64,000 nt of DNA from Escherichia virus TH22, in sequence record MT446396.1; one strand, 5' to 3'. The notes beneath the pieces were generated by a model that saw only the letters and a program-made list of their open reading frames with translations, was not told the origin of the DNA and ran no database searches. Both the position numbers and the translations under genes were made by a program. Shown piece after piece: positions 435-61,145 of this stretch; within the stretch, counting starts at the first letter, position 1, and every line of letters begins with the position of its first letter.

Positions 435-3400
435 TTATTTTAACAATGATTTAATTAATGCTTTAAGTTCTTCAATCTCTGACTTAAGTTCTGCAATTTC
501 TGCAGTATGCTCATTGATTGCAGCTGTATTTAAACCAATTACACCGTTATAGTTTAAACGAAGTAAAGCTTCACCATCAGGGTCACCTTCAACCAATTCA
601 GGTAAAATAGATTGAACTTCTTGAGCAATTAAACCAGCGTTAGGTTCCCATTTCTGATTACCTTCTTCGTCCAGGCCACGTTTCTGCATATAAGTGTAAC
701 CGTTAATTTTAGAAAGCTTCTGAGAAGCATTTTCAAATTTAACAAGGTCTTTTTTAACACGAATATCAGAACGGACATAAACATCTCGAACATATGTAGA
801 ATAGGCATCACTTTGTTGGACTAAATGACCAAAAGAAATAATAGCTCTTCCTGTTTCAGTCCACAAAGCACCATGAGTATCCCAAAGACCTTCATGGATA
901 TGGTAAGAGCTAGACCAAGATGCAATATGTGCACCATTTGCAACCATATTGATTCGGCCGTCACCACCATGAACTAATCCTGTATCATTATCACCAATAA
1001 CAAGACACGGACCGGTCCATACAGGGTCACCACCACCAGCTGATAATCTTGCTCCAGTTTTAACCATGTTAGGAACATACATAACTCCATTGTGGTGGAA
1101 TTCATATATAGCTTGTGGGTCGGAACCGTTTTCCTGGTTACCTACACGAATAATACCTTGCGCCCACGTTCCCCAGATGCGACGCATACCAAAATCAACA
1201 CCCGATATGTATCCTTCATTAGTAATACCTGATTTTCCTTTGATAATAGGATAATAACTATCATTACCAACATTACCAAAATCTACAAATACTGGGGCTT
1301 CTTGCTTCCATTGGTTTCCCCACTCGCCAGCCTGGTGCGCAGCCCAGACAGAGCCATTAATAAAAAGCCGGTCCCTATTAAAATTAAAAGTGGCTGAACC
1401 TTGTGGGTTTAAAGCAATATCACCACCTGCATTAATATTAACACCTGAATTAGTTTGAAAACTATAAATTGATACAGCATTATCGGCACCGCCGTTACCT
1501 ACATACCAGTTATCAATACCAGCTTTTTGTCCTTTAACATAACCAGATTCGGTTGCAGCACTGTTAATAACAATAGCATCCGAGTTTGCATTAAGAGTTA
1601 AACGGCCTGTCATCGTGTCGCCACCTTTACCAACACGAGTATTCACCGCTGCGTCAAGGTTGGTAGCACCACTATACTTTTTCCAAATAGAACCTGCAAT
1701 ATTACCATCAGTATTCATGAAAGCTGTACCGGCATATAAGCGGTTCTGAGCCATGAAGTTACCTTCTTTGGTAAAGCGCCAGTATTTTAATCCTGTAGCA
1801 TCACCATCACCAAGCAAATCACCTTGAGCAACAATTCGGTATTCGCTCGTAGCGCGGTCCATACCTTGGGTAATAGTTACATTCGAATCGATATTTTTCT
1901 GCTTAGTAATAGGATAAAATGCTTGGGTTGCAGCATCGAGTGCTTGATACAACGGAGCTTTAGTCGTATTCTGGTTGGCATAAGATGCGCCGTTACTATT
2001 AGGGAATTCCAATGCACCATTACCCCTAAAAGAAACCTGGTCTGCTTCTAAGTTAGGGATTTTAACCCGACCCGTGTCTAACATAATACTTAATGGGCGT
2101 AATGGGCCTAATCCGCCACTTTCGCCGGCATTAACATTGGTTGGGATAATATGCAGCTGGTCTTCCGAATTTCGAAAAATAACACCGTACTTATCGTTCC
2201 AAATACGAAGACCACTAGCAGCGCGAACTTTAATTTCATTGGAAACATACAGATTGCGTTTTAAGGATGTATCTTGATTGACAGTCAATCCTTCAATTAC
2301 ATTCATGGTACCATTTAAATAGGATTCGACTTTACCTGCTGTAGTTCGTTGAATATAATGCATCCAGCCAGTAGCATCAGATGTTTCCATTACGTTTTTA
2401 CGAGAACCACCTACCGTATTAAAAGTGTCACCCCAAACTTTGAGCTCTATATTATCAACTGAACTACTTCCTGTTGTATTTCCTTTAAAAAGCACTGTCG
2501 AAGCATTACTGAGACCATCAATATTAACCGAACCACCACGGACTTCAACGTTACCAGGAGTAACCAACAACCCGTCATGAGTGTTAACGTTTGTTACACC
2601 TTTGCCACGAAAATAATGGTGATATTTGCCGCTTTGGTGATAACCTAAAAGAGTTTGACCGTCGCCGAAGCCGTTTTTATCATTAGTGGTATTAACAATA
2701 ACTAATGGATAGTTTTGAGCTGTAGGAAGAATTAAATCAGAACCGTTGGTTGAATAACCTGCAACTAACTGTTTAAGGCTTGTAACTTCAGTTGGAGTTG
2801 TAAGTAAAGTATAAGCTCCATTATTAATTGTATGGAACTGGCCGTCTTGTCTCCATTTCAAACCTGTGTTATTGTCACCAAGTGCGATAGCAGACGGACC
2901 TAATGTTGAGTATCCTGAGCTATCCCCAGGTAGGCCAACGGAAAGAGAATTTGATGTTTTGACATCACCATCTGCATTAAATGACCAAAGATACTTAGCT
3001 GTTCCGGCTGTAGAAATAGAATGCCATGAAATACCATTTACATTATTAAGTTCACGATACCTAATTCCATTGACAGCGTGTCTACTTATTCTAAGATAGT
3101 TAATAGCCGTTGCGCTTGAACTTGCAGGATTATTATTTGCCAATGAAGATATATCATAATCAAGAGCTGATTTATTACCAGTATCAACTGTATTAGTATA
3201 AATTACTGGAGATTTCACCGATGTTCCGCTGGAAATAGACGGAGCATAAAATAAACCGTCGCCGTTGAATGCAAAAATATTAGATGTTGAATTAGTGTAA
3301 TCTTGAACACGAACGTTCAAGATTTGCTTGGTATCCCCAGTACGGTTTTGAGAATAAATTATACCTCTTTCTCGAGCATCAGCCAAATCCTGGAATCGAA

Positions 3401-5626: not shown

Positions 5627-8600
5627 TTATTCAATCCATTCAAACTTAACGGATTTAGTGGTCGGGTCTGGGATGATGCGCACGTTACCGATACGTAACC
5701 AATCGAGAACGGTTAAGTTCCCCATCGTTGTGTTGTCGGCCGGTAATGCACCAACATCCTCTGCAGACGGAGGGTTATCCGCGGTGTAAACCATTGCGAA
5801 AGTCGTCCATGCAGATTTATTTTTCTGCCACGTACGAGTATAACGAATAGTACCACCGTTCAATCCAGTTGGATAGCAAACCCAATCTTGATAGCACGAA
5901 TCCAGCGTATTACCAAACTGAGTCAATGTACCAGGATATTTAATTTGTTTATCACGAACCGAATAGTCAAACCAGGTTCCGCGCAGTTTTTGGCCAGAGC
6001 TACCTAATACTTCATCACCGAGTGTACCATCGTCATTACGATAACGAATAGCAGGCGAGGCGAAAGTTCCATTTTCAGTTAACCAACCAGAAGCATTCCA
6101 AACTTCATCAGTTACCCCGGCAGGTTTAGTTTGAACTGTATCAATGTTTACCTGACGTTTTAACTTCATTGTCCAATAACCAGGGAACTGGCTATAAGTC
6201 GGTTCATCATTGATATCGACAGACCAGAAGCCAACAGTATCTGTAGTCGGAGCTTGTGTGATAAGACTTGGTTTCGTACCGAATACACGGACCGGAGCAT
6301 TCACACGGAGCACACCAGACATTGTATCACCGGCTTGGTTAACAAAGTTTCTATCTACAATCTCAACAGCGTTTTTCTCGGTCAGGACTTTAAATGCGCC
6401 GCCACCATTTGCTATGATATTACCAGCATCAAGAGTTTTAAGCACTAAATTCTGCGAGTTATCACCCAGAGCCAGAGTTGCACCAGAAGCTTCACCCGTT
6501 GTGGTTGCGATAGTACGACCATTTAGAACGTAATTATTTTTGGCTTGAACATCATTTCCGGCGCTAAGGTTGTTCAATACAGCAGCATTACCCGAGGCGG
6601 TGTTTAATGTCAATACGTTAGTCGTATCGCCAATAGTCATTGTCGTTCCGGTGGAAGGAGCGGTGATTTTCCACTTGTTAGTTCCGTTAACAACGTTCAC
6701 AGTTCCGAACGTCGAAGTGCCAGCCGTTACATCAGTAAACACTGCAGTGCTCGTCGATACAACCGGAGCAGATATATTTGTCTGTTTGGTAAGAGTTAAC
6801 ACACCTTCAACAGTCTGAGCAATATCACGACGAATAAACTGGGTCGAATCAAGGTTATCCAGTTTTTCAGCATTAACAGCCATCGCATTTATCGGTAAGA
6901 AGTTTTGCAATACGCGGTTTAATTCGTAAGGCGAAACTGCATAACCAGATTTTGAATAGCTAACCAGTTTACTTGGGTCCGGAGTATACACACCATTTGC
7001 ATATGTAAATCCTGCACCAGTCGTTGTAGTTGCGGCCGAAGTAGCTGTACCAGAAGATAAACGAACAAATCCACGTAGGGTTTCAGATGCTTCCCAGGTT
7101 GTTTCCGTTTGGGCAATATATTTCAGCGCCGACGGACTGATGGCCAAGACTTTTGATGTGCCTGCTGTTGCTTCTGTGTTTGTCGCGATGCGAACAATAC
7201 CTTCGGCATTTTCAGTGGCTTTTTTCGACATCAATTTAAGCGGAGTAACGATTGTTTTATCGTCAGTGCCGGTATTGACTTCACCCTGAGTCGCTAATCT
7301 TGCCGTACCACGTTGAGTCTCATTTGCTTCAAGAATATTCAGGCTATAATGGTCCCAGAGCGTCCCTGTTTCTACTAAACCACTTAATGCATTAACAGAA
7401 GTGCGAGCAGTATTATTAAATCTAGTTTTAATTTTTAATGGAGTTGAGATACGAGTATCATCGGTTCCAGTATCAAATTCTGATTGCGTAGCAATCTCGG
7501 CTATGCCGGTTAACGTTTCTGATGCTTTACGGTCATTTAACGTTTTAGGAGTCACAGCTCTGGTATAATCGGTTCCTGCATCCGTTTCTACTTGAGTTGC
7601 AATCTCGATTAAACCGATACGGGAATCAAGAGCAGTTTTGCGATGCAACATTTCTGGAGTAACGACTGCGTTTGCCCAGCCAGATTGAGAAGTACCAGCA
7701 ATTACTTCACTTTCAACCGCAAGAATAACCGCACCTTGTTGAGTGTAAGTAGCTTTGTACTGGTCAAGAGCTTTCGGAGAAACAACCAGATTAACCGTAT
7801 TTTTATTATAAACGTTTGTACCATTTAATTCACGCGAATCAGCAGGAGTTGCACCGGTTGTTGAAACGTAAGTTACAATACCAGATAGCGATTCCGAGCC
7901 CTGGCGCGCTTGCAGTTTCTTCGGAGTGATAATTGTGGTATCATCTACACCTGCATCGGTTTCTTGCTGTGTGGCGAGTTCTGCGAGCCCACGTCTCGTT
8001 TCTGTTGCCGTACGTTCATTGAGTTTTTTCGGAGAAATAATTACATCATCAACAAATGCAAAATCACTGTTCTGATTTACTTGAGCAGTCGTTGCGATTC
8101 TGGCAATACCTCGTTGGTTCTCTTTAGCAACACGGTTAGCCAAAGTCTGAGGAGTAATTGCGAGTTCTTTCTCTGGGTTATTTTCATGGTCAACGTTTGC
8201 CTGAGTCTGGTTTGCCAGAGCAATAACACCAAGACGCGCACGCGTGGAATCATTTAATGAGTCAACTCGTTCAACAGTCGGAACGTTTTGAGCAACAACC
8301 CAATAACTTGTTCCAGACACTTCATCTTCTGCATATGACAATTCAATAACTGGAGTATAACTGATGTTGCCATTAAAGGTCAATGAATCAACCATCACCC
8401 AAGTTGTATCCGGTGGATACTCGGAACGTTTAGGGAATTGCAGCAATTTAATGTCAGATGCAATCTTATCGCCAACAGCAGCTCTTATATTAACAGTCTG
8501 TGATTTACGGAGATAGTTCAATGCAATTTTAACAATGTCGCCTTGCAAAACATCCGTTGGTAAATCGATATTAATCGTTGCTGGAGTTGAGTTATCTTCG

Positions 8601-12460: not shown

Positions 12461-12508
12461 TATGTAATCAAAACAACTGCTAAAAATCAAATAATCTAAG
12501 GAAATCAT

Positions 12509-13420
12509 ATGTCTATGTTTAAACGTAAAAACCCTGCTGACCTGGCTGCTTCCCTTAACGCTCTGAAAGGTGGCTCTGGTTTCTCTTCTGACGATAAAAA
12601 AGAATGGAAACTGAAAGATACTGATGGCGTCGGCTCTGCGGTTATTCGTTTCCTGCCTTCCAAAAATGAAGAAAATCCATCTCCGTTCATCAAGCTCGTT
12701 AACCACGGCTTTAAAAATGGCGGTCAATGGTATATTGAAAACTGTACTTCTACTCACGGCGACTATGAAAACTGTCCTGTGTGTGCGTACATGAATAAGA
12801 ATGACCTGTACAATACAAACGAATCCGAATATCGTAAACTGAAGCGTAATACTTCTTACTGGGCTAACATCCTGGTCATTAAAGACCCTGCTGTTCCGTC
12901 TAACGAAGGTCAAGTATTCAAATATCGCTTCGGCAAGAAAATCATGGACAAAATTAACCAGATGGTTGAAGTCGATGTTGACATGGGCGAAACAGCTATT
13001 GATGTAACTTGTCCTTTTGAAGGTGCAAACTTTGTACTGAAATCTAAACTGGTTTCCGGTTATAAAAACTACGATGATTCCAAATTCATGAACCAGTCTG
13101 AAATCGCTGGTATCAATGATGAAGCATTCCAGAAAAAACTTTGGGACGAAATGTCTGACCTGAATGAATTGCTGGTGTTTAAATCCCTTGAAGAGAATCA
13201 GAAGAAATTCTCTAAAGTAATGGGTACGGCCGCTCTCGGTGGCGCTGCTTCTAAAGCCGCCGCACAAGCTGATAAACTGGGCGCTGACCTGGACGATTTC
13301 GATAAAGATATGGAAGACTTCACTTCCAGCAAACCTGCTAAGTCTGAACGCACTGCGACTGCTCCAAGCGCTCCAGAGCCTTCCGATGATGGTCTTGACG
13401 ACCTTCTGGCTGGCCTTTAA
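12509..13420 (+). CDS. 32: single-stranded DNA-binding protein gp32
   Basis: 303 aa; strong match to recalled T4 gp32 ([35 protein letters not shown], acidic C-terminus); RBS AAGGA. Confidence 0.95.
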
Positions 13421-14241: not shown

Positions 14242-14604
14242 ATGGAAACTGGTAAATTTTACGTATTAGACCCCGCTGCCAAAAAACAATTCATCGCTGG
14301 TAGTCCTGATGACAATTCGTGCATGGTCAAGTTGATGGAACAACATGGTAATTCCTTCAAAGTCCTGGATATGTGTTATATTGAAGGTGATTATTTTGTT
14401 GAAAAAGTTGAAATGAAAGATGGCACCATCCTGAATAGTATGGGTGATTCTGATGAGTACTTTGAACTCGGTGAATGGGAATTCTGCCACTTCCTGGAAG
14501 TTGATGGCGATGCACCTGTTGATACCCAAACCATTCATGTGCAGGTAAATCATAAAAATGCCGCGGAAGTTATTGCCTTGATTAAAGCAACTTTTGAGGT
14601 CTAA
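14242..14604 (+). CDS. hypothetical early protein (120 aa), paralog of ORF 13531
   Basis: RBS GAGGA; N-terminal GKFYVLDPAAKKQFIAG motif shared with ORF 27480. Confidence 0.6.
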   Translation: METGKFYVLDPAAKKQFIAGSPDDNSCMVKLMEQHGNSFKVLDMCYIEGDYFVEKVEMKDGTILNSMGDSDEYFELGEWEFCHFLEVDGDAPVDTQTIHVQVNHKNAAEVIALIKATFEV

Positions 14605-14605
14605 C

Positions 14606-14860
14606 ATGACTAAAGATGATTTCCTGGATGCAGTAGAAAAAGCAAGCGAACAATTTGAAGTAATGGGTGTACGAGTTCATAAAGACAGAAATTATGGTCT
14701 GGATGTTCAAACATACTCATTATGGCTTGTTGGTGAACACAGTCTTGCAACCAATCTTGTTATGGGGGTTGATACTCATCCTTTATTAGTTAAGTTTAGA
14801 AGTATTGAAAAAGCCACCAAGGAAATGATTAAACTTGGCAAATGGCTTGATAAAATTTAA
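14606..14860 (+). CDS. hypothetical protein (84 aa)
   Basis: ATG with GAGG RBS overlapping upstream stop; track ORF begins at an upstream TTG. Confidence 0.5.
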   Translation: MTKDDFLDAVEKASEQFEVMGVRVHKDRNYGLDVQTYSLWLVGEHSLATNLVMGVDTHPLLVKFRSIEKATKEMIKLGKWLDKI

Positions 14861-24705: not shown

Positions 24706-24735
24706 GTGTACAAACTCATGGGAGCAGAGTATAAT
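24706..24735 (+). promoter_or_regulatory. early promoter (GTGTAC, N18, TATAAT)
   Basis: Seen in sequence upstream of ORF 24764. Confidence 0.5.
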
Positions 24736-25252: not shown

Positions 25253-26470
<1,218 letters not shown>

Positions 26471-26861: not shown

Positions 26862-27069
26862 CAAACACCATGAAGTTGAAGAAGAAGCTTATAAAGAGCT
26901 TCAGAAACTGGTAGGTCAGAATATGTCTCCTGCTCTTATCAATAACCTGGCTGCACTGCGTAATGACATCAACGAACGGTACAAGGGCGAATATTATGTT
27001 GAATTCGTTCCGCTGACTGAAGTCATTGACCGATTTATCGTTAATGTCAAGGTGCATACCGTCCATTAA
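26854..27069 (+). CDS. hypothetical protein (71 aa)
   Basis: Internal ATG of track ORF 26785 chosen to avoid long overlap. Confidence 0.45.
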   Translation: MYNKHHEVEEEAYKELQKLVGQNMSPALINNLAALRNDINERYKGEYYVEFVPLTEVIDRFIVNVKVHTVH

Positions 27070-27085
27070 CGCTTTAAAAATTTTA
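27060..27085 (+). promoter_or_regulatory. middle promoter (CGCTTTA box, N12, TATAAT) followed by ggggtctaggtcc element
   Basis: Member of a recurrent middle-promoter cassette. Confidence 0.45.
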
Positions 27086-27140
27086 TGGTATAATGGGGTC
27101 TAGGTCCTTTGGATACCCCAATAACTAAGCGAGAAAAGAA

Positions 27141-35887: not shown

Positions 35888-37948
35888 ATGTCTGAACAAT
35901 TAAATGAACTCTTTGACAAATATATCGAAGCCTTCGGTTATCCTGTCATTAATATGAATCCAAAATACAAGGTCCCACAGGTTTGGCAATTTGGTGTTCC
36001 TGGGACCAATTCTCTTATGGCTCGTTTGATGCAATTCACGGGCAAAGAAACAGTTAAACAATATAAACGCGGCGATGCAATTGCCGAGGTATTCCTGTTA
36101 TCCGGAACTTCACACGGTCATGCTGTTCCTCTGAAGGGTGGTTTAGGTGAAAAACCTCTTGATGCAATTAACTTGATTTTTACTACAGTCTGGGAAAGCA
36201 TTAAACTAGGCAAACCTGATGTAGTCTTGTTCCGTTTCCCATCCAAAAAGATGAAAGGACAAGACCAAGCTATTATTCGTATTATGAATCGACTGATTCA
36301 AATGAAAACCAGCGGACGTTATCATGTTCTTCCGAATGCTTCTGGCCTTGGTAAAAAGAACGCTTATGTAATTATGTACAAAAGGGGTGTTGACCTGCTT
36401 TCAGTCGATGGTATGCCACCAGTCCCTGAGAAATATAAAAAAGTCGAAACTAAAGTTGGTGATGTATTCACCAATAAAGATAATGGTGCACAAGTATCCA
36501 AACAAGAAATTGCAGCCGAGATTCTGATTGACGCAGCAAACAAAAAGACCGATGCTGCTGTTGCCCAGAAAACTAAAATCAGTCGCCGAGCTATTGCACA
36601 AGCCCAGTACGCTCCAAGTGATTCCGTGCCAGAAGGTTGGGACGAAATCGATGCAGAAGCTGCTAAGTTTAGTCGACCGGCTACGGCAGAACTTATCGAT
36701 GATTATGAAGAACTGGAAATTTTTGTTCGACCTTCCGAAACGAATACTATGGCTCGTATGCGCGCAGCAGATACGGCTATGCGAGCAAATGGTGTTTGGA
36801 AAGAAGAAATTCGTGTTGAAGACTCTGACCCAATTTTTAACCGTATGCATCGCGAACTTAAACGTGCTCCAGTTGGTAGTATGAAGCAGATGCAGATTTT
36901 TGCCGAATCATGCGCAGAGATTCTTAACCTTCGCAAAGCCGCATTTATCGAAAGAAAAATGAATGATGCTCCTCCTAATGTGGATGCAGCCACTTATGCA
37001 GCCTCGCTCTGGGAAAAAGAATACACAAGCGCCATTCGTGTTGCAGTTAAAGACTTTGCTGAAGAAGCATCAGAAAATACTCTTAATTTCACAGCAGGGT
37101 ATACTGACAACCGTTTCCATTATGGTCAGCGAGAAGCAATTGCAGATTATTGTGGAGCAAACTATGCCGATATTAATAATTATTTGATGGGCAAATATTA
37201 TGAAGAAGAAGCTGAATTCCTAAATCTAGACAGAGTTGTCGAAACAATTAAGGAATTGGATTCGGCCTTTGAAATTGGACATAAGTTGCCACCTAATACA
37301 ACTCTTTGGCGTGGTCAATATTTAAACGTTCCTACATTTGATAAAATTAAGAAATCTAAATTATTTTATTTCAGGAACTATGTATCAACGTCGTTTAAAC
37401 CGATTATCTTTGGTGGCTGGGTGGCGAACGTTGCTATGGCTGCAGTTCATCAGGACTATCGTGATGGGACATCTTTCCAGGCTGATGACGAAATTGTTTT
37501 ACCAGATATGCCGGAAGCACGCCGCGACCACGTAATGATGCATGTTGGTTGGAAAATTTCTGGGGCGGACTTAATTAACGTAATTGTTCCTGGGGAATTG
37601 TCAGGCAACCCATCCGAGCAGGAAGTTATTCTTCCTCGTGGGACTGTAGTTAAGATTACCAAAATTACTGATGCTTCGTATCAAGGAAACGCGAACGTCA
37701 AAATGCTGGAAGCTGATATCCAGACTACGGACCAACTGGATGAAAATGCAGTTATCTATGATGGTGATGTGTTGATGGAAACTGGTGAGCTTGTCGTTTA
37801 TCAGGGCGAGGAAACAGAAGAGCCAGTAGAATCTGTTGACTTTGCATCGTTTGCATCCTCTGGGGTAACGAAGAAAGTCAATCAAGGTCTTGGTATTCTT
37901 GCTAGTTGTATTAATTTGGAAGCTATTCCTCCTAAATTCCTTTCGTAA
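35888..37948 (+). CDS. alt: Alt ADP-ribosyltransferase (packaged, modifies host RNA polymerase)
   Basis: 686 aa; match to recalled T4 Alt (KISRRAIAQ, FYFRNYVSTS, EVILPRG.VVK..KITDASY, IYDGD.LMETGELV, VDFASF.SS). Confidence 0.9.
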   Translation: MSEQLNELFDKYIEAFGYPVINMNPKYKVPQVWQFGVPGTNSLMARLMQFTGKETVKQYKRGDAIAEVFLLSGTSHGHAVPLKGGLGEKPLDAINLIFTTVWESIKLGKPDVVLFRFPSKKMKGQDQAIIRIMNRLIQMKTSGRYHVLPNASGLGKKNAYVIMYKRGVDLLSVDGMPPVPEKYKKVETKVGDVFTNKDNGAQVSKQEIAAEILIDAANKKTDAAVAQKTKISRRAIAQAQYAPSDSVPEGWDEIDAEAAKFSRPATAELIDDYEELEIFVRPSETNTMARMRAADTAMRANGVWKEEIRVEDSDPIFNRMHRELKRAPVGSMKQMQIFAESCAEILNLRKAAFIERKMNDAPPNVDAATYAASLWEKEYTSAIRVAVKDFAEEASENTLNFTAGYTDNRFHYGQREAIADYCGANYADINNYLMGKYYEEEAEFLNLDRVVETIKELDSAFEIGHKLPPNTTLWRGQYLNVPTFDKIKKSKLFYFRNYVSTSFKPIIFGGWVANVAMAAVHQDYRDGTSFQADDEIVLPDMPEARRDHVMMHVGWKISGADLINVIVPGELSGNPSEQEVILPRGTVVKITKITDASYQGNANVKMLEADIQTTDQLDENAVIYDGDVLMETGELVVYQGEETEEPVESVDFASFASSGVTKKVNQGLGILASCINLEAIPPKFLS

Positions 37949-45198: not shown

Positions 45199-45588
45199 AT
45201 GAATATAAACAAAATGTATAGCGATGTATCTCCCGACTTATCTACAAGTTGGGATAAAGACGTTGCTAAAGTAACTGGTGCAAGGTCTGTTAAGAACAGT
45301 CTTCTGGGAATAATCACCACAAGAAAAGGGTCACGGCCTTTTATGCCTGAATTTGGATGTGATATAAGTAATCAGCTTTTTGAGAATATCACACCGTTAA
45401 TTACAGATACCATTAAACGCAACATCGTCTCCGCGGTGCGGAACTTCGAACCAAGAATAAGCAATCTACAGGTTGCAGTTGTCCCTATGTATGATGATAA
45501 CTCCATTATCGTAACGGTTCAGTTCAGCATTGTTGATGACCCTGATACCCTCGAACAAATTAGGATTCAGTTAAGTCAAAACGGTTAA
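45199..45588 (+). CDS. 25: baseplate wedge subunit gp25
   Basis: 129 aa; strong match to recalled T4 gp25 (NSLLGIITTRKGSRPF.PEFGCD.S.QLFEN.TPL). Confidence 0.95.
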   Translation: MNINKMYSDVSPDLSTSWDKDVAKVTGARSVKNSLLGIITTRKGSRPFMPEFGCDISNQLFENITPLITDTIKRNIVSAVRNFEPRISNLQVAVVPMYDDNSIIVTVQFSIVDDPDTLEQIRIQLSQNG

Positions 45589-45613
45589 TGCTTTAATTTT
45601 ATGGCTGTATAAT
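45587..45613 (+). promoter_or_regulatory. middle promoter (AATGCTTTA MotA box, N12, TATAAT) followed by ggttctagaccc element
   Basis: MotA box overlaps gp25 stop; -10 followed by a near-palindromic GGTTCTAGACCC. Confidence 0.5.
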
Positions 45614-45641
45614 GGTTCTAGACCCTTACATTGGATACATT

Positions 45642-46076
45642 ATGAAAACAGAGATTGAATATAAGTTAGAAGTCTTTCAGGATGAGTTAGATGCGGATTT
45701 AAAAATTGATGGTACGCAACTTCAATATGAAACACAAAACAACGTTTTGTTGCATAGCAAATGGTTGAGATTGTATACCAACTGCAAGAAAGAAATAATG
45801 CGTCTTGAGATTCAGAAGAAAACTGCACTGAAAAAACGACTAGACCATTATACTGGAAGAGGTGACCCAGGGGAAGAGGTATGCATGGATGTATACGAGA
45901 AGTCGGAATTGAAAACAGTCATGGCAGCAGATTCAAACATACTGAAGATTGATACTTCAATTCAGTATTGGGCACTACTCCAGGACTTCTGTAGCGCTGC
46001 ATTAGATGGTGTTAAGTCGCGAAGTTTCGCACTTAAACATATGTTAGAAATAAGACAATTCGAGGCAGGCAAATAA
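45642..46076 (+). CDS. uvsY: recombination mediator UvsY
   Basis: 144 aa from internal ATG; match to recalled T4 UvsY (KLQYE..NNV.L.SKWL, KSRKL... SLQYW..L.DFCS.ALD..KSR.FA.KH, FEAGK). Confidence 0.9.
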   Translation: MKTEIEYKLEVFQDELDADLKIDGTQLQYETQNNVLLHSKWLRLYTNCKKEIMRLEIQKKTALKKRLDHYTGRGDPGEEVCMDVYEKSELKTVMAADSNILKIDTSIQYWALLQDFCSAALDGVKSRSFALKHMLEIRQFEAGK

Positions 46077-50904: not shown

Positions 50905-50932
50905 TTTGCTTCAAATAAAAATGCGGTATAAT
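50905..50932 (+). promoter_or_regulatory. middle promoter (TTTGCTTCA MotA box, N13, TATAAT) followed by ggttctagaccc element; likely rnlB promoter
   Basis: Seen in sequence. Confidence 0.5.
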
Positions 50933-51029
50933 GGTTCTAGACCCTTTGCAACTATTAATTCCTTTCAGAGAAAGAAAGTATAGTGGGTCTAATTTATAAT
51001 GATATTTATAACATCAAAAGTGAGAGATT

Positions 51030-52037
51030 ATGTTTAAGAAATACAACAGCCTTGAAAATCACTATAATAACAAGTTCATTGAAAAGATTCGCCTGCAAGG
51101 CTTCACCAGCGGTGAATGGGTAGCTCGTGAAAAGATTCATGGTACCAACTTTAGTTTAATCATTGAACAAGACAATGTGACATGCGCGAAACGCACTGGA
51201 CCTATTCTACCTGCAGAAGATTTCTATGGTTATGAAATTGTATTAAAGAACTACGCAGATTCTATTAAATCTGTGCAGAAACTTTTACAGGATATTAATT
51301 ACCAGGCTTACCAGATTTATGGCGAGTTTGCTGGTACAGGTATTCAGAAGAATGTGGATTACGGCGATAAAGATTTCTATGTGTTTGATATCCGCGTTAC
51401 TAAGGAAGATGGCTCTGAATCCGTCCTGACTGACACACTTATGGAAGCCTTTTGTATTATTCATAAGTTTAAAGTTGCCCCACGCCTGGCCACAGGTAGC
51501 TTTGAAGACTTGATTAAGCTCCCTAATGACCTGGATTCTGTGGTCCCTGATTACAATTTTACAGTGGATAACGCAGGATTGACTACAGCAAATACCACTG
51601 ATTTTGATGCAAAGGTGGAAGGTAAAGTATTCACTGCTGAAGGATTTGTATTAAAACCTGATGTTCCTGCATGGTTACCTAACGGCGAGCGTGTAGCGAT
51701 TAAATGTAAGAACTCTAAATTCAGCGAAAAGAAAAAGTCTGATAAGCCTATTAAGGCTGCTGTTGTGTTGTCCCAGGAAGACCTGGATGTTTTATGGAAG
51801 TTTACTGATTATGTGACTGTCAACCGTATCAATAATGTTATCAGTAAGATTGGGGAAGTAACACCTAAGGATTTTGGGAAGGTAATGGGTTTGACTGTCC
51901 AGGATATCCTGGAAGAAGCGGGTCGTGAAGGCCTTGAATTGACCCAAACAGAAAATCCTGTTGAAGTTAAAAAGCAACTTATCGCAAATGTAAGAGAAAC
52001 ATTAAGACATGTTTGGATTGCATTAATTAGTGAATAA
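51030..52037 (+). CDS. rnlB: RNA ligase 2
   Basis: 335 aa; strong match to recalled T4 Rnl2 ([52 protein letters not shown]). Confidence 0.95.
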
Positions 52038-52067
52038 AAAAAGGGCCGCAAGGCCCTTATTCTTTTT
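52035..52067. terminator. bidirectional terminator (A-run, AGGGCC-GCAA-GGCCCT, T-run)
   Basis: Seen in sequence between convergent rnlB and the gene 24 paralog. Confidence 0.6.
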
Positions 52068-53340
52068 CCAGCGGTGGAAGTTTAACACCAAGATAAGAAC
52101 TCAATTGACTTTGGTTAGCCATCTTATCCATATCAGCTCCATCAATAAGGCGAGCTTCTTTATCATCTTTAGCAACGGTGTAAGGGTTCGCAGTCAAAGC
52201 ATAACGAGCTAACAGTGCAACCGTAGGCTGTAAGCTTTCAGGGTCAACAATAACCTTGAATTCCCCAACCGAGGTATCACCCTCATCATCAACTTCGCTA
52301 AGCCCTTCCGTATAAGGCGCATAATACAAAGATGCGACCGTCTGACCTTCACCCATATCTGCATTTACACCAACAATAACATAATCACATGGACTATTCA
52401 TATCAGCGTAAAGAGGCAAACCGTTCTTCAGAACACCATAGGCCAATTCATCCTGGTCTTCCTTTTTCTCAACCCAGCCAGAAGCGGCTAAAATAGCTGC
52501 ACAACGGGAAGAAGCAACCGCATATGTACCAGCAAACGAAGTCTGACGTTGAACTGCAGAATTCATTTCACACATATAATAATACAGGGTTCGCGCGCGG
52601 TCCTGCGCGTTATCATATTTCGGGTCAGTAAGATTCAATACACCTTTTTCCGAAACACCTTGCACCTTGAAGCGGGAACTAACAGTAATAAGGGATTGCA
52701 ATACATCCTTATTAATTTCCTCTGCCATTTGAATGCCGAGAATATTATCGATGAAGTCTGTTGCATCAAAACCGTTTGCTTCCAGGTCCTGGGCAAGCTC
52801 GACAGTTAAAGAAGTTTTCAACTTTCTGGATTTAACTTCAGTCTGCCATTTATCGATACGAAAACCAGCTTCAGCAATTTCAGGATGCCCCTTTTCAAAT
52901 TTATCAGTGAAAGCAGCATCTGACATCATTCTTATATGCCCAGCAGCAATGGCTTCAGAAATAACTTCACCTAAATCAGTTTCGAGTGTACCGGCGAATG
53001 GGGATGCTTCCAAAACTTTGAACACAACACTTTCAAACTGGAACATATCGCCGACTGCATAAGCTTCGTCTTTGTTTGTAAATTCTGGAATATTCTTACG
53101 CTCGAACATACCAATCTGACCTGCAAATGTTGCTCCACCGAGATAAGTCATTTTATCATCTGGGTTCAGAACACGAACACCATACAGCGCTGCAACAGGC
53201 TGGGTAGTTTTCTGTTCGGCCACGAGCGCTTTAAAAATTCGTTTATTCGTGGCTTGAGTATAAGAAAGCAAATTAGGACGGGCGACCTGGTTGGCCGCCG
53301 TTAATGTTGATTCGTGAATTAGTGCATTAATCTTTTGCAT
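52057..53340 (-). CDS. second, diverged copy of head vertex protein gp24 (gp23/gp24 fold)
   Basis: 427 aa; colinear similarity to the adjacent gp24 (MQKINALIHESTLT... vs MAKINKLLRESTIT...; shared KSRKLKT..TVELAQDLEANGF, NKDVLQSLITVS, YAPYTEGL, ANPYTVAKDDKEAR). Confidence 0.8.
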   Translation of the reverse strand: MQKINALIHESTLTAANQVARPNLLSYTQATNKRIFKALVAEQKTTQPVAALYGVRVLNPDDKMTYLGGATFAGQIGMFERKNIPEFTNKDEAYAVGDMFQFESVVFKVLEASPFAGTLETDLGEVISEAIAAGHIRMMSDAAFTDKFEKGHPEIAEAGFRIDKWQTEVKSRKLKTSLTVELAQDLEANGFDATDFIDNILGIQMAEEINKDVLQSLITVSSRFKVQGVSEKGVLNLTDPKYDNAQDRARTLYYYMCEMNSAVQRQTSFAGTYAVASSRCAAILAASGWVEKKEDQDELAYGVLKNGLPLYADMNSPCDYVIVGVNADMGEGQTVASLYYAPYTEGLSEVDDEGDTSVGEFKVIVDPESLQPTVALLARYALTANPYTVAKDDKEARLIDGADMDKMANQSQLSSYLGVKLPPLEKE

Positions 53341-54621
53341 TTACGCCTCATAAATGATTGGCGGAAGTTTAACACCGAGCAGATAAGACATATTGCTCTG
53401 ACCGGCCATTAAATCCATATTGGTTGCATCGATAATACGAGCTTCTTTATCGTCTTTAGCAACGGTGTACGGGTTAGCTGAAAGTGCGTAACGAACCATC
53501 AGAGAGATAGATGGCTGCAAGCTGTCTGGGTCCACAATGACCTTAAACGCACCAACGTGCTCTTCATCATCCAAGTCCAGGCCTTCGGTATAAGGAGCAT
53601 AGAAAATTGCGCCTACGACTTCGTTTCCGCCGTAATTTTCTTTAACACCAACAGTTACATAATCCAATGGACTGTTAACATCACAGAATACAGGGAGGCC
53701 ATTAATCAAATAACCGTACGCTGTTTCGGGGAGCCACTGTTCGTCTTCTGGTCTGTGTTTCAACCAACCAGAACCGGCCAACATAGCAGCAACACGGCTA
53801 GAGGCAACAACAAAGGTACCGGAATAAGATGTAGTTTTCTGAATTTCGGAGTTCATTTCGCAAACCAGTTCGTACAGTTTACGTGCACCTTCTGGGGCTG
53901 CATCGTATGTTAAATCGATGGTGCCATTGTCAGAAACGCCAGTTACTTTATAACGCTTGGAAACGGTAATAAGAGACTGAAGAACATCTTTGTTAATTTC
54001 ATCTGCCATAATAGTGGCAAGCAGGTCTTCTAAGAAAGCAGGAGCATTAAAACCATTTGCTTCCATATCCTGGGCAAGTTCAACAGTTAATGCAGTTTTC
54101 AATTTACGTGTTTTAACCGGAGCATTCCATTTGTTAACCTGGAATACAGCATTGCTAATTTCAACATCACCGGCTTCGAATTTTTCAGTGTGTGCGGCAT
54201 CAGGAACAAGGCGAATAGTCGATGCAATAAGACCTTCTTGCAGAACATCAGATAACACTGTTTCTGTGGTCGATGCAAATGGATTATCAACCAGAGCTTT
54301 GTAAACGATATTTTGGTATTTTATATATTCGCCTTTAGCCACAGGCTGAGTGGCTGTAGTTAATTCTGGAATAGTTGTGCGGTCTTTAGAACCGACTTCG
54401 CCTCCATAAGTAGCGCCCGTCTGGAAACTGAATTCATTATCAGGAGTAAGATATTTAACACCATACAGTGCAGCAACAGGTTGGTTAGTACGTTGTTCAG
54501 CGATGATATCGCGGTAAATCAATTTAGTCGTAGCGCGGGTCAAAGCAACAAGATTCGGGCGGCCCAAGGAGTTGCTGGTAGTAATAGTTGACTCGCGCAG
54601 TAATTTGTTAATCTTTGCCAT
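53341..54621 (-). CDS. 24: head vertex protein gp24
   Basis: 426 aa; close match to recalled T4 gp24 (MAKIN.LLREST.T.SNS.GRPNLVALTRATTKLIY.DI.A.QRTNQPVAA). Confidence 0.9.
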   Translation of the reverse strand: MAKINKLLRESTITTSNSLGRPNLVALTRATTKLIYRDIIAEQRTNQPVAALYGVKYLTPDNEFSFQTGATYGGEVGSKDRTTIPELTTATQPVAKGEYIKYQNIVYKALVDNPFASTTETVLSDVLQEGLIASTIRLVPDAAHTEKFEAGDVEISNAVFQVNKWNAPVKTRKLKTALTVELAQDMEANGFNAPAFLEDLLATIMADEINKDVLQSLITVSKRYKVTGVSDNGTIDLTYDAAPEGARKLYELVCEMNSEIQKTTSYSGTFVVASSRVAAMLAGSGWLKHRPEDEQWLPETAYGYLINGLPVFCDVNSPLDYVTVGVKENYGGNEVVGAIFYAPYTEGLDLDDEEHVGAFKVIVDPDSLQPSISLMVRYALSANPYTVAKDDKEARIIDATNMDLMAGQSNMSYLLGVKLPPIIYEA

Positions 54622-61001: not shown

Positions 61002-61072
61002 CTAGGTAATATGATTCATCATCTCAAGATAATGGCTTCCCAGAATCAACCACAGGAGCCCGTAGAACCGAT

Positions 61073-61100
61073 TATGCTTTTATTTATATCACTGTATAAT
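61073..61100 (+). promoter_or_regulatory. middle-promoter-like cassette (ATGCTTTT box ... TATAAT-ggttctacgg) oriented antisense to gene 18, flanked by a perfect 10-bp inverted repeat
   Basis: Near-identical to the promoters at 45587 and 50905 but no plus-strand gene downstream. Confidence 0.4.
61081..61088 (-). promoter_or_regulatory. late promoter (TATAAATA) for gene 19, distal copy
   Basis: tatttata on plus strand. Confidence 0.45.
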
Positions 61101-61145
61101 GGTTCTACGGTTTCTAACTGATTAATTCATTCTAAGCGATGATAA

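Follow-up and report, generated by a model that had tools for sequence, protein, structure and literature searches.

Genomic context and promoter anatomy

The window analysed here is a 64,000-nucleotide stretch of the Escherichia virus TH22 genome (MT446396.1). It corresponds, with 2 mismatches, to positions 15878-79877 of phage UPEC07 (MW250787.1; Straboviridae, Tevenvirinae, Gaprivervirus), a T4-like phage of 170,004 bp on which all genome-wide counts were made. The A+T content of the UPEC07 genome is about 60% throughout, and the + strand of the window carries early and middle genes. Outside the window, the UPEC07 record annotates MotA (12498-13106) and the anti-sigma-70 protein AsiA (14522-14797). 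A first-pass annotation of the window, made from the sequence alone, had listed four sites (numbered here along the window) in which a MotA box, a spacer and TATAAT are followed by the near-palindrome GGTTCTAGACCC or a variant. Every one of them was recovered at its position, and their assignment to a MotA-type middle-promoter family is upheld by the presence of both MotA and AsiA in the genome.

Site 3 is the promoter of rnlB. Its MotA box TTTGCTTCA (50905..50913, +; TGCTTCA at 50907-50913) and -10 hexamer TATAAT (50927..50932, +) are followed by the start-site module GGTTCTAGACCCTTTG (50933..50948, +), in which GGTTCTAGACCC occupies 50933-50944 and the predicted +1 is A 50939. The rnlB ATG is at 51031. 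The leader between them contains a degenerate second copy of the core, TATAGTGGGTCTA (50979..50991, +), 52 nt downstream of site 3, and the GGGTCTA within this copy is complementary to the TAGACCC heading the site 3 transcript. In a sister phage, whose leader differs (AGACCTTCC...), AGAGGGTA stands at the same place, where pairing is possible too.

Site 2, the promoter of uvsY, corresponds by position and orthology to T4 PuvsY / oriF. It consists of the MotA box TAATGCTTTA (45586..45595, +; TGCTTTA at 45589-45595), TATAAT (45608..45613, +) and the module GGTTCTAGACCCTTAC (45614..45629, +), with GGTTCTAGACCC at 45614-45625 and a predicted +1 at A 45620. The GenBank record of UPEC07 places the uvsY start at ATG 45612, within the TATAATGG of this promoter. 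The start kept across relatives is the ATG at 45642, downstream of the predicted transcription start.

Site 1 lies in the cd.x region, upstream of a small ORF (ATG 27141). It has the MotA-box-like TAACGCTTTA (27067..27076, +) with CGCTTTA at 27070-27076, 12 bp upstream of TATAAT (27089..27094, +), and the module GGGGTCTAGGTCCTTTGG (27095..27112, +) with a predicted start at 27101/27102. The sequence after the -10 is GGGGTCTAGGTCC (27095-27107), with one more G in the discriminator than the other copies have. The core of site 1 is the same as the core at the Dhakavirus rnlB promoter.

Site 4 is located between late genes 19 and 18 and is directed antisense into gene 18. Its MotA box is TTATGCTTTT (61073..61082, +; TGCTTTT at 61076-61082), its -10 hexamer is TATAAT (61095..61100, +), and its module GGTTCTACGGTT (61101..61112, +) has a predicted +1 at A 61107. 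The module of site 4 is also the right arm (GGTTCTACGG, 61101-61110) of an inverted repeat of 11 bp with 1 mismatch, whose left arm is CCCGTAGAACC (61059..61069), so that the whole promoter lies inside the repeat. This enclosing repeat could form a hairpin in the late-strand intergenic RNA. Repeats of other sequence enclose the antisense promoter adjacent to gene 3 in Gaprivervirus (TCAGTGTTAT/ATAACACTGA) and also in Dhakavirus.

The MotA boxes of sites 2-4 read TGCTT(T/C)(A/T), in line with a consensus (a/t)(a/t)(a/t)TGCTT(t/c)A near -30. The MotA-like motif of the first-pass annotation thus stands as TGCTT at these three sites, whereas site 1 has CGCTTTA; CGCTT is a tolerated MotA-box variant (PMC2988021). 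The -10 hexamer is TATAAT at all four sites, and the spacers between MotA box and TATAAT are 12, 12, 13 and 13 bp, within the 12±1 bp of middle promoters. The near-palindrome is exact only at sites 2 and 3, with variants at sites 1 and 4. A borderline member, the P34i / oriG orthologue, was found antisense within gene 34 (7322..7362, +) as ATTTGCTTCA-N13-TATAAT-GGTCCCAGAGCG; its match to the module is limited to -6 to +2. Judging by orthology to the mapped T4 promoters PuvsY, PnrdC.7 and P34i, initiation at these sites would depend on MotA and AsiA.

The mapped starts of the T4 promoters PnrdC.7 (53325), PuvsY (115371) and P34i (153011) (Hinton 2010, PMC2988021 Table 1) are each the A seven bases past TATAAT. 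The first-pass annotation had placed the element where transcription would start, in agreement with these orthologous starts. Since the T4 starts fall at the central A, the block straddles +1. It consists of the discriminator GGTTCT (-6 to -1) and the initial transcribed stretch AGACCCTTTG (+1 to +10), or AGRYCCTTY in degenerate form. One-base indels are found precisely where the two halves meet: site 1 has an additional G, the UPEC07 nrdC.7 copy lacks an A, and T4 has an additional A. This tolerance at the junction fits two halves that are read independently.

Abundance and distribution of the start-site module

The composite motif TATAATGGNTCTA, searched with at most one mismatch, gave 4 matches in the window against 0.34 expected, and none of 100 shuffles reached 4, which rules out a chance origin for the positioned motif. 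The bare 12-mer with up to two mismatches gave 5 matches in the window against 2.6 expected, which was not significant. Therefore, the signal is the fixed register beside the -10. In the UPEC07 genome, seven full copies were found among 37 MotA-box/-10 candidates. Nine of the 37 have GG at -6/-5, and seven of these nine go on with TCT(A). Of the three copies additional to those in the window, one precedes an nrdC.7-like gene. The other two are on the opposite strand, one of them flanked by a homing-endonuclease gene and gene 3 and the other at the modA 3′ end. The modA 3′-end and gene 3/2 promoters are antisense, at genome positions 164129(-) and 102609(-). The module-bearing promoters are a discrete subclass and not the general middle-promoter consensus.

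The seven copies align at the MotA box, at the -10 and from -6 to +10 only; flanks and spacers are unrelated, and identity among the paralogues ends sharply at -12 and +11. The first-pass annotation had named recent duplication of one segment as the result that would undo its proposal. Such a duplication is ruled out by the unrelated flanks and spacers and by the positional conservation of the loci across genera. An exact 17-mer scan of IMG/VR returned Gaprivervirus contigs only, plus 4 unrelated chance matches. A relaxed scan found the family in T4 and other genera, so the element is not private to UPEC07.

Conservation across T4-like phages

Positional orthologues of the module-bearing promoters were found in T4, Dhakavirus, RB69-like phages and Klebsiella T4-like phages. 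In T4, the module reads TATAATgaatctaagtccatcc at PuvsY, TATAATggttctaagcccttt at PnrdC.7, TATAATgaatctaagtccttcc at a promoter between srd and modA (11885(+)), and TATAATgggtctaagtcccttcc at a promoter between genes 3 and 2 (75988(+), or 25988(+) of T4 segment L022). The latter two are absent from the table of 58 T4 middle promoters (Hinton 2010, PMC2988021). The antisense promoters at modA and at gene 3/2 are present in T4, Gaprivervirus, Dhakavirus and other contigs. In the Dhakavirus VR5, the module occurs at the uvsY and rnlB promoters and also at the 18/19 junction, the last at a position matching site 4. Downstream of the antisense promoters (site 4, modA and gene 3/2), no credible ORF was found.

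A motif, GATAATAGATTAT (GATAATAGAATTAG in T4), occurs 35-50 nt downstream of the antisense promoters by gene 3 and gene 18, just beyond the stop codons of opposite-strand late genes. Its positions are about 2920-2935 (-) in L058-L062 and L075, 37770-37785 in L018, about 36655-36670 (-) in L002, and 26045-26060 in the T4 segment L022.

Three promoters keep their position across several genera: that of uvsY (31 contigs), the one divergent from gene 3 and the one by the modA 3′ end. These loci were picked by protein and not by motif, and the UvsY proteins are 56-84% identical. When the uvsY promoters of 11 lineages are aligned, TATAAT and G-6 never vary, and conservation of G-5, T-1 and A+1 is at least 90%. 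The spacer between MotA box and -10 and the leader diverge in the same alignment. Taken over 35 representative copies, the information content is high between -6 and +1 and moderate between +3 and +9; past +10 there is none. The stretch from -6 to +1 was partly used in finding these 35 copies, and the alignment of the 11 uvsY lineages serves as the unbiased check. The module thus exists at a fixed position, is conserved at orthologous loci across genera, and has its start mapped in the T4 orthologues. The sequence comparisons indicate that the start-site block is real and ancient.

The consensus differs from lineage to lineage and is common to the paralogues of each: TCTAAGTCC in T4, TCTAGACCC in Gaprivervirus and YCTAGGTC in Dhakavirus. 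Copies within one lineage are more alike than their orthologues.

The first-pass annotation did not recall the element as part of the T4 middle-promoter consensus, and the published consensus indeed stops at the -10 or extended -10. Most other mapped T4 middle promoters are A/T-rich after TATAAT. The module promoters share with T4 PuvsY and PnrdC.7 the MotA box at -30, the 12±1 bp spacer, the sigma-70 -10 and the same start A; what sets the subclass apart from T4 middle promoters is the block from -6 to +10. The module appears to be undescribed in the reviews and papers on T4 middle transcription that were searched. Searches on the sequences themselves, on PuvsY properties and on T4 antisense or transcription start site maps returned nothing relevant, and the T4 GenBank records annotate no promoter features.

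Symmetry and RNA structure

The first-pass annotation had read the near-palindrome as suggestive of an operator for a dimeric DNA-binding regulator. This was not borne out. Near-symmetry is confined to the Gaprivervirus version. T4 copies, GAATCTAAGTCC or GGTTCTAAGCCC, have an extra central A and no symmetry past CTAAG, and Dhakavirus copies read GGTCCTATGGTT or GGGTCTAGGTCC, the latter at the rnlB promoter. The distance between the halves varies by -1, 0 or +1, and no covariation was found at the symmetric positions 3/10 and 4/9. Neither the dyad nor a fixed half-site spacing is therefore kept among copies and orthologues. Asymmetry, varying spacing and lack of covariation together argue against a classical dimer operator and against a DNA or RNA hairpin. 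The near-palindrome looks incidental, a by-product of GG...CT|AG...CC.

The other suggestion of the first-pass annotation, a conserved 5′ RNA end, would be viable only for +1 to +10: the best-conserved bases (-6, -5, -2 and -1) are untranscribed, and the leaders have no common fold. Among 11 leaders folded from the mapped or predicted +1, no shared fold was found, and most z-scores were between -0.4 and +1.3. The 5′ ends of the family leaders are mostly predicted to be unpaired. A search of the whole window against Rfam at the gathering score gave 0 matches. Sequestration of the Shine-Dalgarno region by the pyrimidine-rich 5′ end, inspected by eye in the uvsY leaders of five lineages, was inconsistent. 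Two resemblances were dropped: one to the tRNA T-arm, because the GGTTCT half is untranscribed, and one to boxA, because the match is weak.

A proposed core-promoter module and its alternatives

Our preferred, though tentative, reading is that the block is the start-site module of a distinct and ancient subclass of MotA/AsiA middle promoters of T-even-type phages, acting in cis on the polymerase. Its discriminator part would be GG(T/G)(T/C)C(T) at -6 to -1, and its transcribed part A(A)G(R/K)(Y)CC(Y)TT(Y) from +1 to about +10, with the start at the central A. At other promoters, G at -6/-5 is read by sigma-70 region 1.2 and G+2 (the core recognition element) by the core enzyme, and both stabilise the open complex. 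The module would act in this way on the host RNA polymerase, region 1.2 reading non-template G-6/G-5 and the core enzyme recognising G+2 as well as the pyrimidine-purine step at -1/+1. The combined effect of these contacts would be an open complex with a long lifetime and a start fixed precisely at +1A. The beneficiaries would be promoters that lack -35 or UP-element contacts and stand mostly alone, beside late genes or antisense. A self-sufficient core promoter is plausible in such settings, given the lack of -35 and UP contacts and the isolation of many members.

The upstream half, with G-6/G-5, pyrimidines from -3 to -1, A+1 and usually G+2, looks like an optimal discriminator and start context for E. 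coli RNA polymerase. The strong early-type promoters of UPEC07 likewise favour G-6, pyrimidines at -3 to -1 and A+1, so this part of the module is a general strong-promoter feature. The lambda PR sequence, GATAAT-GGTTGC-A-T, is close to TATAAT-GGTTCT-A-G; common to the two are G-6/G-5, a discriminator of 6 nt and a purine start preceded by a pyrimidine. The discriminator of lambda PR reportedly has a role in open-complex stability, and sigma region 1.2 is said to follow a GGGA rule. However, contacts of the lambda PR type, known from other promoters, leave +3 to +10 and the lineage variants unexplained. To our knowledge, RNA polymerase makes no base-specific contacts at +3 to +10, and the transcribed half is thus not accounted for by the polymerase model. 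It also counts against this model that the host polymerase is the same, yet the consensus is lineage-specific and the module has sharp edges. These two features look closer to selection by a lineage-specific reader than to random conversion tracts. Within-lineage likeness may come from short-patch homogenisation among repeated regulatory cassettes, as in PeSL elements; the lineage-specific version could possibly reflect either such homogenisation or a lineage-specific reader, be it a DNA-binding regulator or an RNA 5′-end factor. Since most mapped T4 middle promoters are A/T-rich after the -10, the module is unnecessary for middle transcription as such.

A reader on the DNA would be a phage DNA-binding protein, not necessarily a symmetric dimer, that sits on -6 to +10, occludes the start and times or shuts off this promoter subset, for instance when infection passes to late transcription or to recombination-dependent replication. 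It would explain why the consensus is peculiar to each lineage and common to its paralogues, why paralogue identity stops sharply at -12 and +11 though the spacers differ, and why conservation reaches past the base-specific polymerase contacts. It would also suit the retention of CTAG at the family starts, which goes against strong genome-wide avoidance: CTAG occurs 100 times in the UPEC07 genome against about 614 expected, a six-fold depletion, and family starts make up three of the eight genomic TCTAGA sites. The retained CTAG is in keeping with the core-promoter reading too. We nevertheless regard an operator as unlikely, because dyad symmetry is not conserved, the half-site spacing shifts one base either way, positions 3/10 and 4/9 do not covary, and the reviews that cover prereplicative transcription and replication in T4 are silent on a site of this kind. 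If the reader acted on RNA instead, the transcribed half (5′-AGRYCCUUY...) would function as a short, unstructured, pyrimidine-rich 5′ leader, recognised by an RNA-binding or RNA-modifying factor or by 5′-end-dependent decay machinery, or serving as a pairing seed. Conservation extends to +9/+10, the same 5′ sequence heads both mRNAs (uvsY, rnlB, nrdC.7) and ORF-less antisense RNAs, and the 5′ ends are predicted to be mostly unpaired, all of which favours such a leader. The strongest conservation, however, is upstream of +1 and untranscribed, the leaders lack a common fold, complementarity to their own Shine-Dalgarno regions was inconsistent on inspection by hand, and Rfam recognised nothing in the window. 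A functional leader therefore has a fairly small chance of being the explanation.

The copies might also be a repeated or mobile cassette of the PeSL/PmSL kind, or a recent segmental duplication, with a functionless downstream part. PeSL and PmSL elements are cassettes of T4-like phages that combine a promoter with a terminator (Arbiol 2010; Comeau 2014; PMC2839356, PMC4122927). Like the module, they are repeated, promoter-centred regulatory cassettes with a consensus slightly different in each lineage; T4-type phages are known to carry such families (PMC2839356, PMC4122927), and the early promoters of UPEC07 form families of this sort with conserved leaders. PeSL elements, however, have a stem-loop just upstream and are associated with hyperplastic regions and indels, whereas the module has its conserved part downstream, at the start site, and its loci are syntenic across genera. 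Upstream PeSL stem-loops are absent at sites 1-3: no inverted repeat of at least 7 bp precedes the promoter at site 2 or site 3, and the one ahead of site 1 is weak. At site 4, the inverted repeat encloses the promoter instead of preceding it. Flanks and MotA-to--10 spacers are unrelated between copies. The copies occupy the same loci in several genera (uvsY, rnlB, gene 3/2, the modA 3′ end and 18/19), in phages with UvsY identities as low as 56-60%, and must therefore be old and stable. Positional conservation largely rules out the cassette or duplication reading, to which we give a very slight chance. A hairpin or terminator arm was also discarded as the common element, because flanking inverted repeats exist only at site 4 and at the gene 3 antisense copy.

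The early-type promoters of UPEC07 (-35 GTGTAC/GTTTAC) occur in cassette families, each with its own leader (ATCAACTACTGGAGA..., ATACTGAGTT...). They were located at 24730, 27445 and 37976 of the window and at 8155, 8735, 9634, 105871, 118076, 156198 and 168670 of the genome. In the copies at genome 8155, 8735 and 9634/168670, inverted repeats flank the -10 in a PeSL-like manner.

Possible relation to replication origins

An origin of the oriF/oriG type combines a middle-mode promoter with an A+T-rich unwinding element no more than about 50 bp downstream (PMC3016281). The module might mark transcripts that prime replication at such R-loop origins, in which case the antisense copies would be origin or primer promoters. 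Site 2 and the promoter at window 7345 are middle-mode promoters orthologous to both T4 origin promoters, PuvsY (oriF) and P34i (oriG). The two T4 promoters both carry G-6, a purine at -5 and a C-Y-A start, and P34i and its window 7345 orthologue match the module from -6 to +2. Moreover, four members are antisense or have no credible downstream ORF, and the distances of the five T4 members to the five mapped origins (A, C, E, F and G) are 0.06-5.7 kb (post hoc p about 0.002-0.04). Several observations speak against the idea. The -10 and discriminator of P34i are forced by the gp34 codons L-W-D-H-Y, so the match may be a coincidence, and because they mirror conserved codons the origin link via P34i is weakened. 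The oriA-associated promoter P56 has no module, while nrdC.7, rnlB and cd.x have ordinary mRNA promoters. The oriF R-loop needs only a promoter and an unwinding element with no specific sequence, and oriF and oriG have little homology, origins being without a common motif (PMC3016281). A pyrimidine-rich RNA start would also disfavour stable hybrids. Finally, T4 origins are defined experimentally, by autonomous plasmid replication and persistent R-loops, and the members of the module family other than the oriF and oriG promoters are plain mRNA or antisense promoters. Marking of primer transcripts thus has a small chance of being the role of the module. The wider proposal, that the -6 to +10 module is the signature of primer/R-loop promoters and the family a set of transcription-primed origins of T-even phages, is a long shot. 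If true, it would imply that the conserved antisense promoters of the modA 3′ end and the gene 3/2 interval are unrecognised origins that fire the opposite way, clockwise. It would also account for origin activity being limited to some middle promoters, and for the closeness of the T4 copies to mapped origins.

At window 7345-7359, the -10 and discriminator of the P34i orthologue are the reverse complement of the gp34 codons L-W-D-H-Y. The promoter could be located in 15 of 21 contigs from several genera, and in these 15 the TAT/CAT codon choice that preserves TATAAT is kept, which implies selection on the promoter within the gene 34 coding sequence.

T4 middle transcription and origin firing are textbook systems, yet the middle consensus goes no further than the -10 and the origins reportedly have no motif in common. 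The module defines a middle-promoter subclass that includes the oriF promoter and the conserved antisense promoters missing from the PMC2988021 table. It also offers a mutable sequence for asking how certain MotA promoters stand out from the rest, be it in open-complex stability, in timing or in priming, and raises the questions of a lineage-specific start-site reader and of the role of antisense middle transcripts opposite modA, gene 2 and gene 18. Even if the core-promoter module favoured here only tuned polymerase binding, it would improve promoter annotation for hundreds of T4-like genomes and help to prevent misplaced start codons, like the uvsY start annotated within the -10.

Other features of the genome

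Besides the scarcity of CTAG, GATC occurs once in the 170,004-bp UPEC07 genome (window 5028) against about 614 expected from base composition. GATC is absent in 20 kb of a Klebsiella T4-like contig (L049), scarce in VR5 and normal in an RB69-like contig (L039). The depletion of GATC and CTAG, seen in the sequences compared, suggests a strong lineage-specific avoidance of Dam or restriction sites. At window 52057-54621, two adjoining paralogous capsid vertex protein genes represent a duplication of gene 24, and VR5 is arranged alike.
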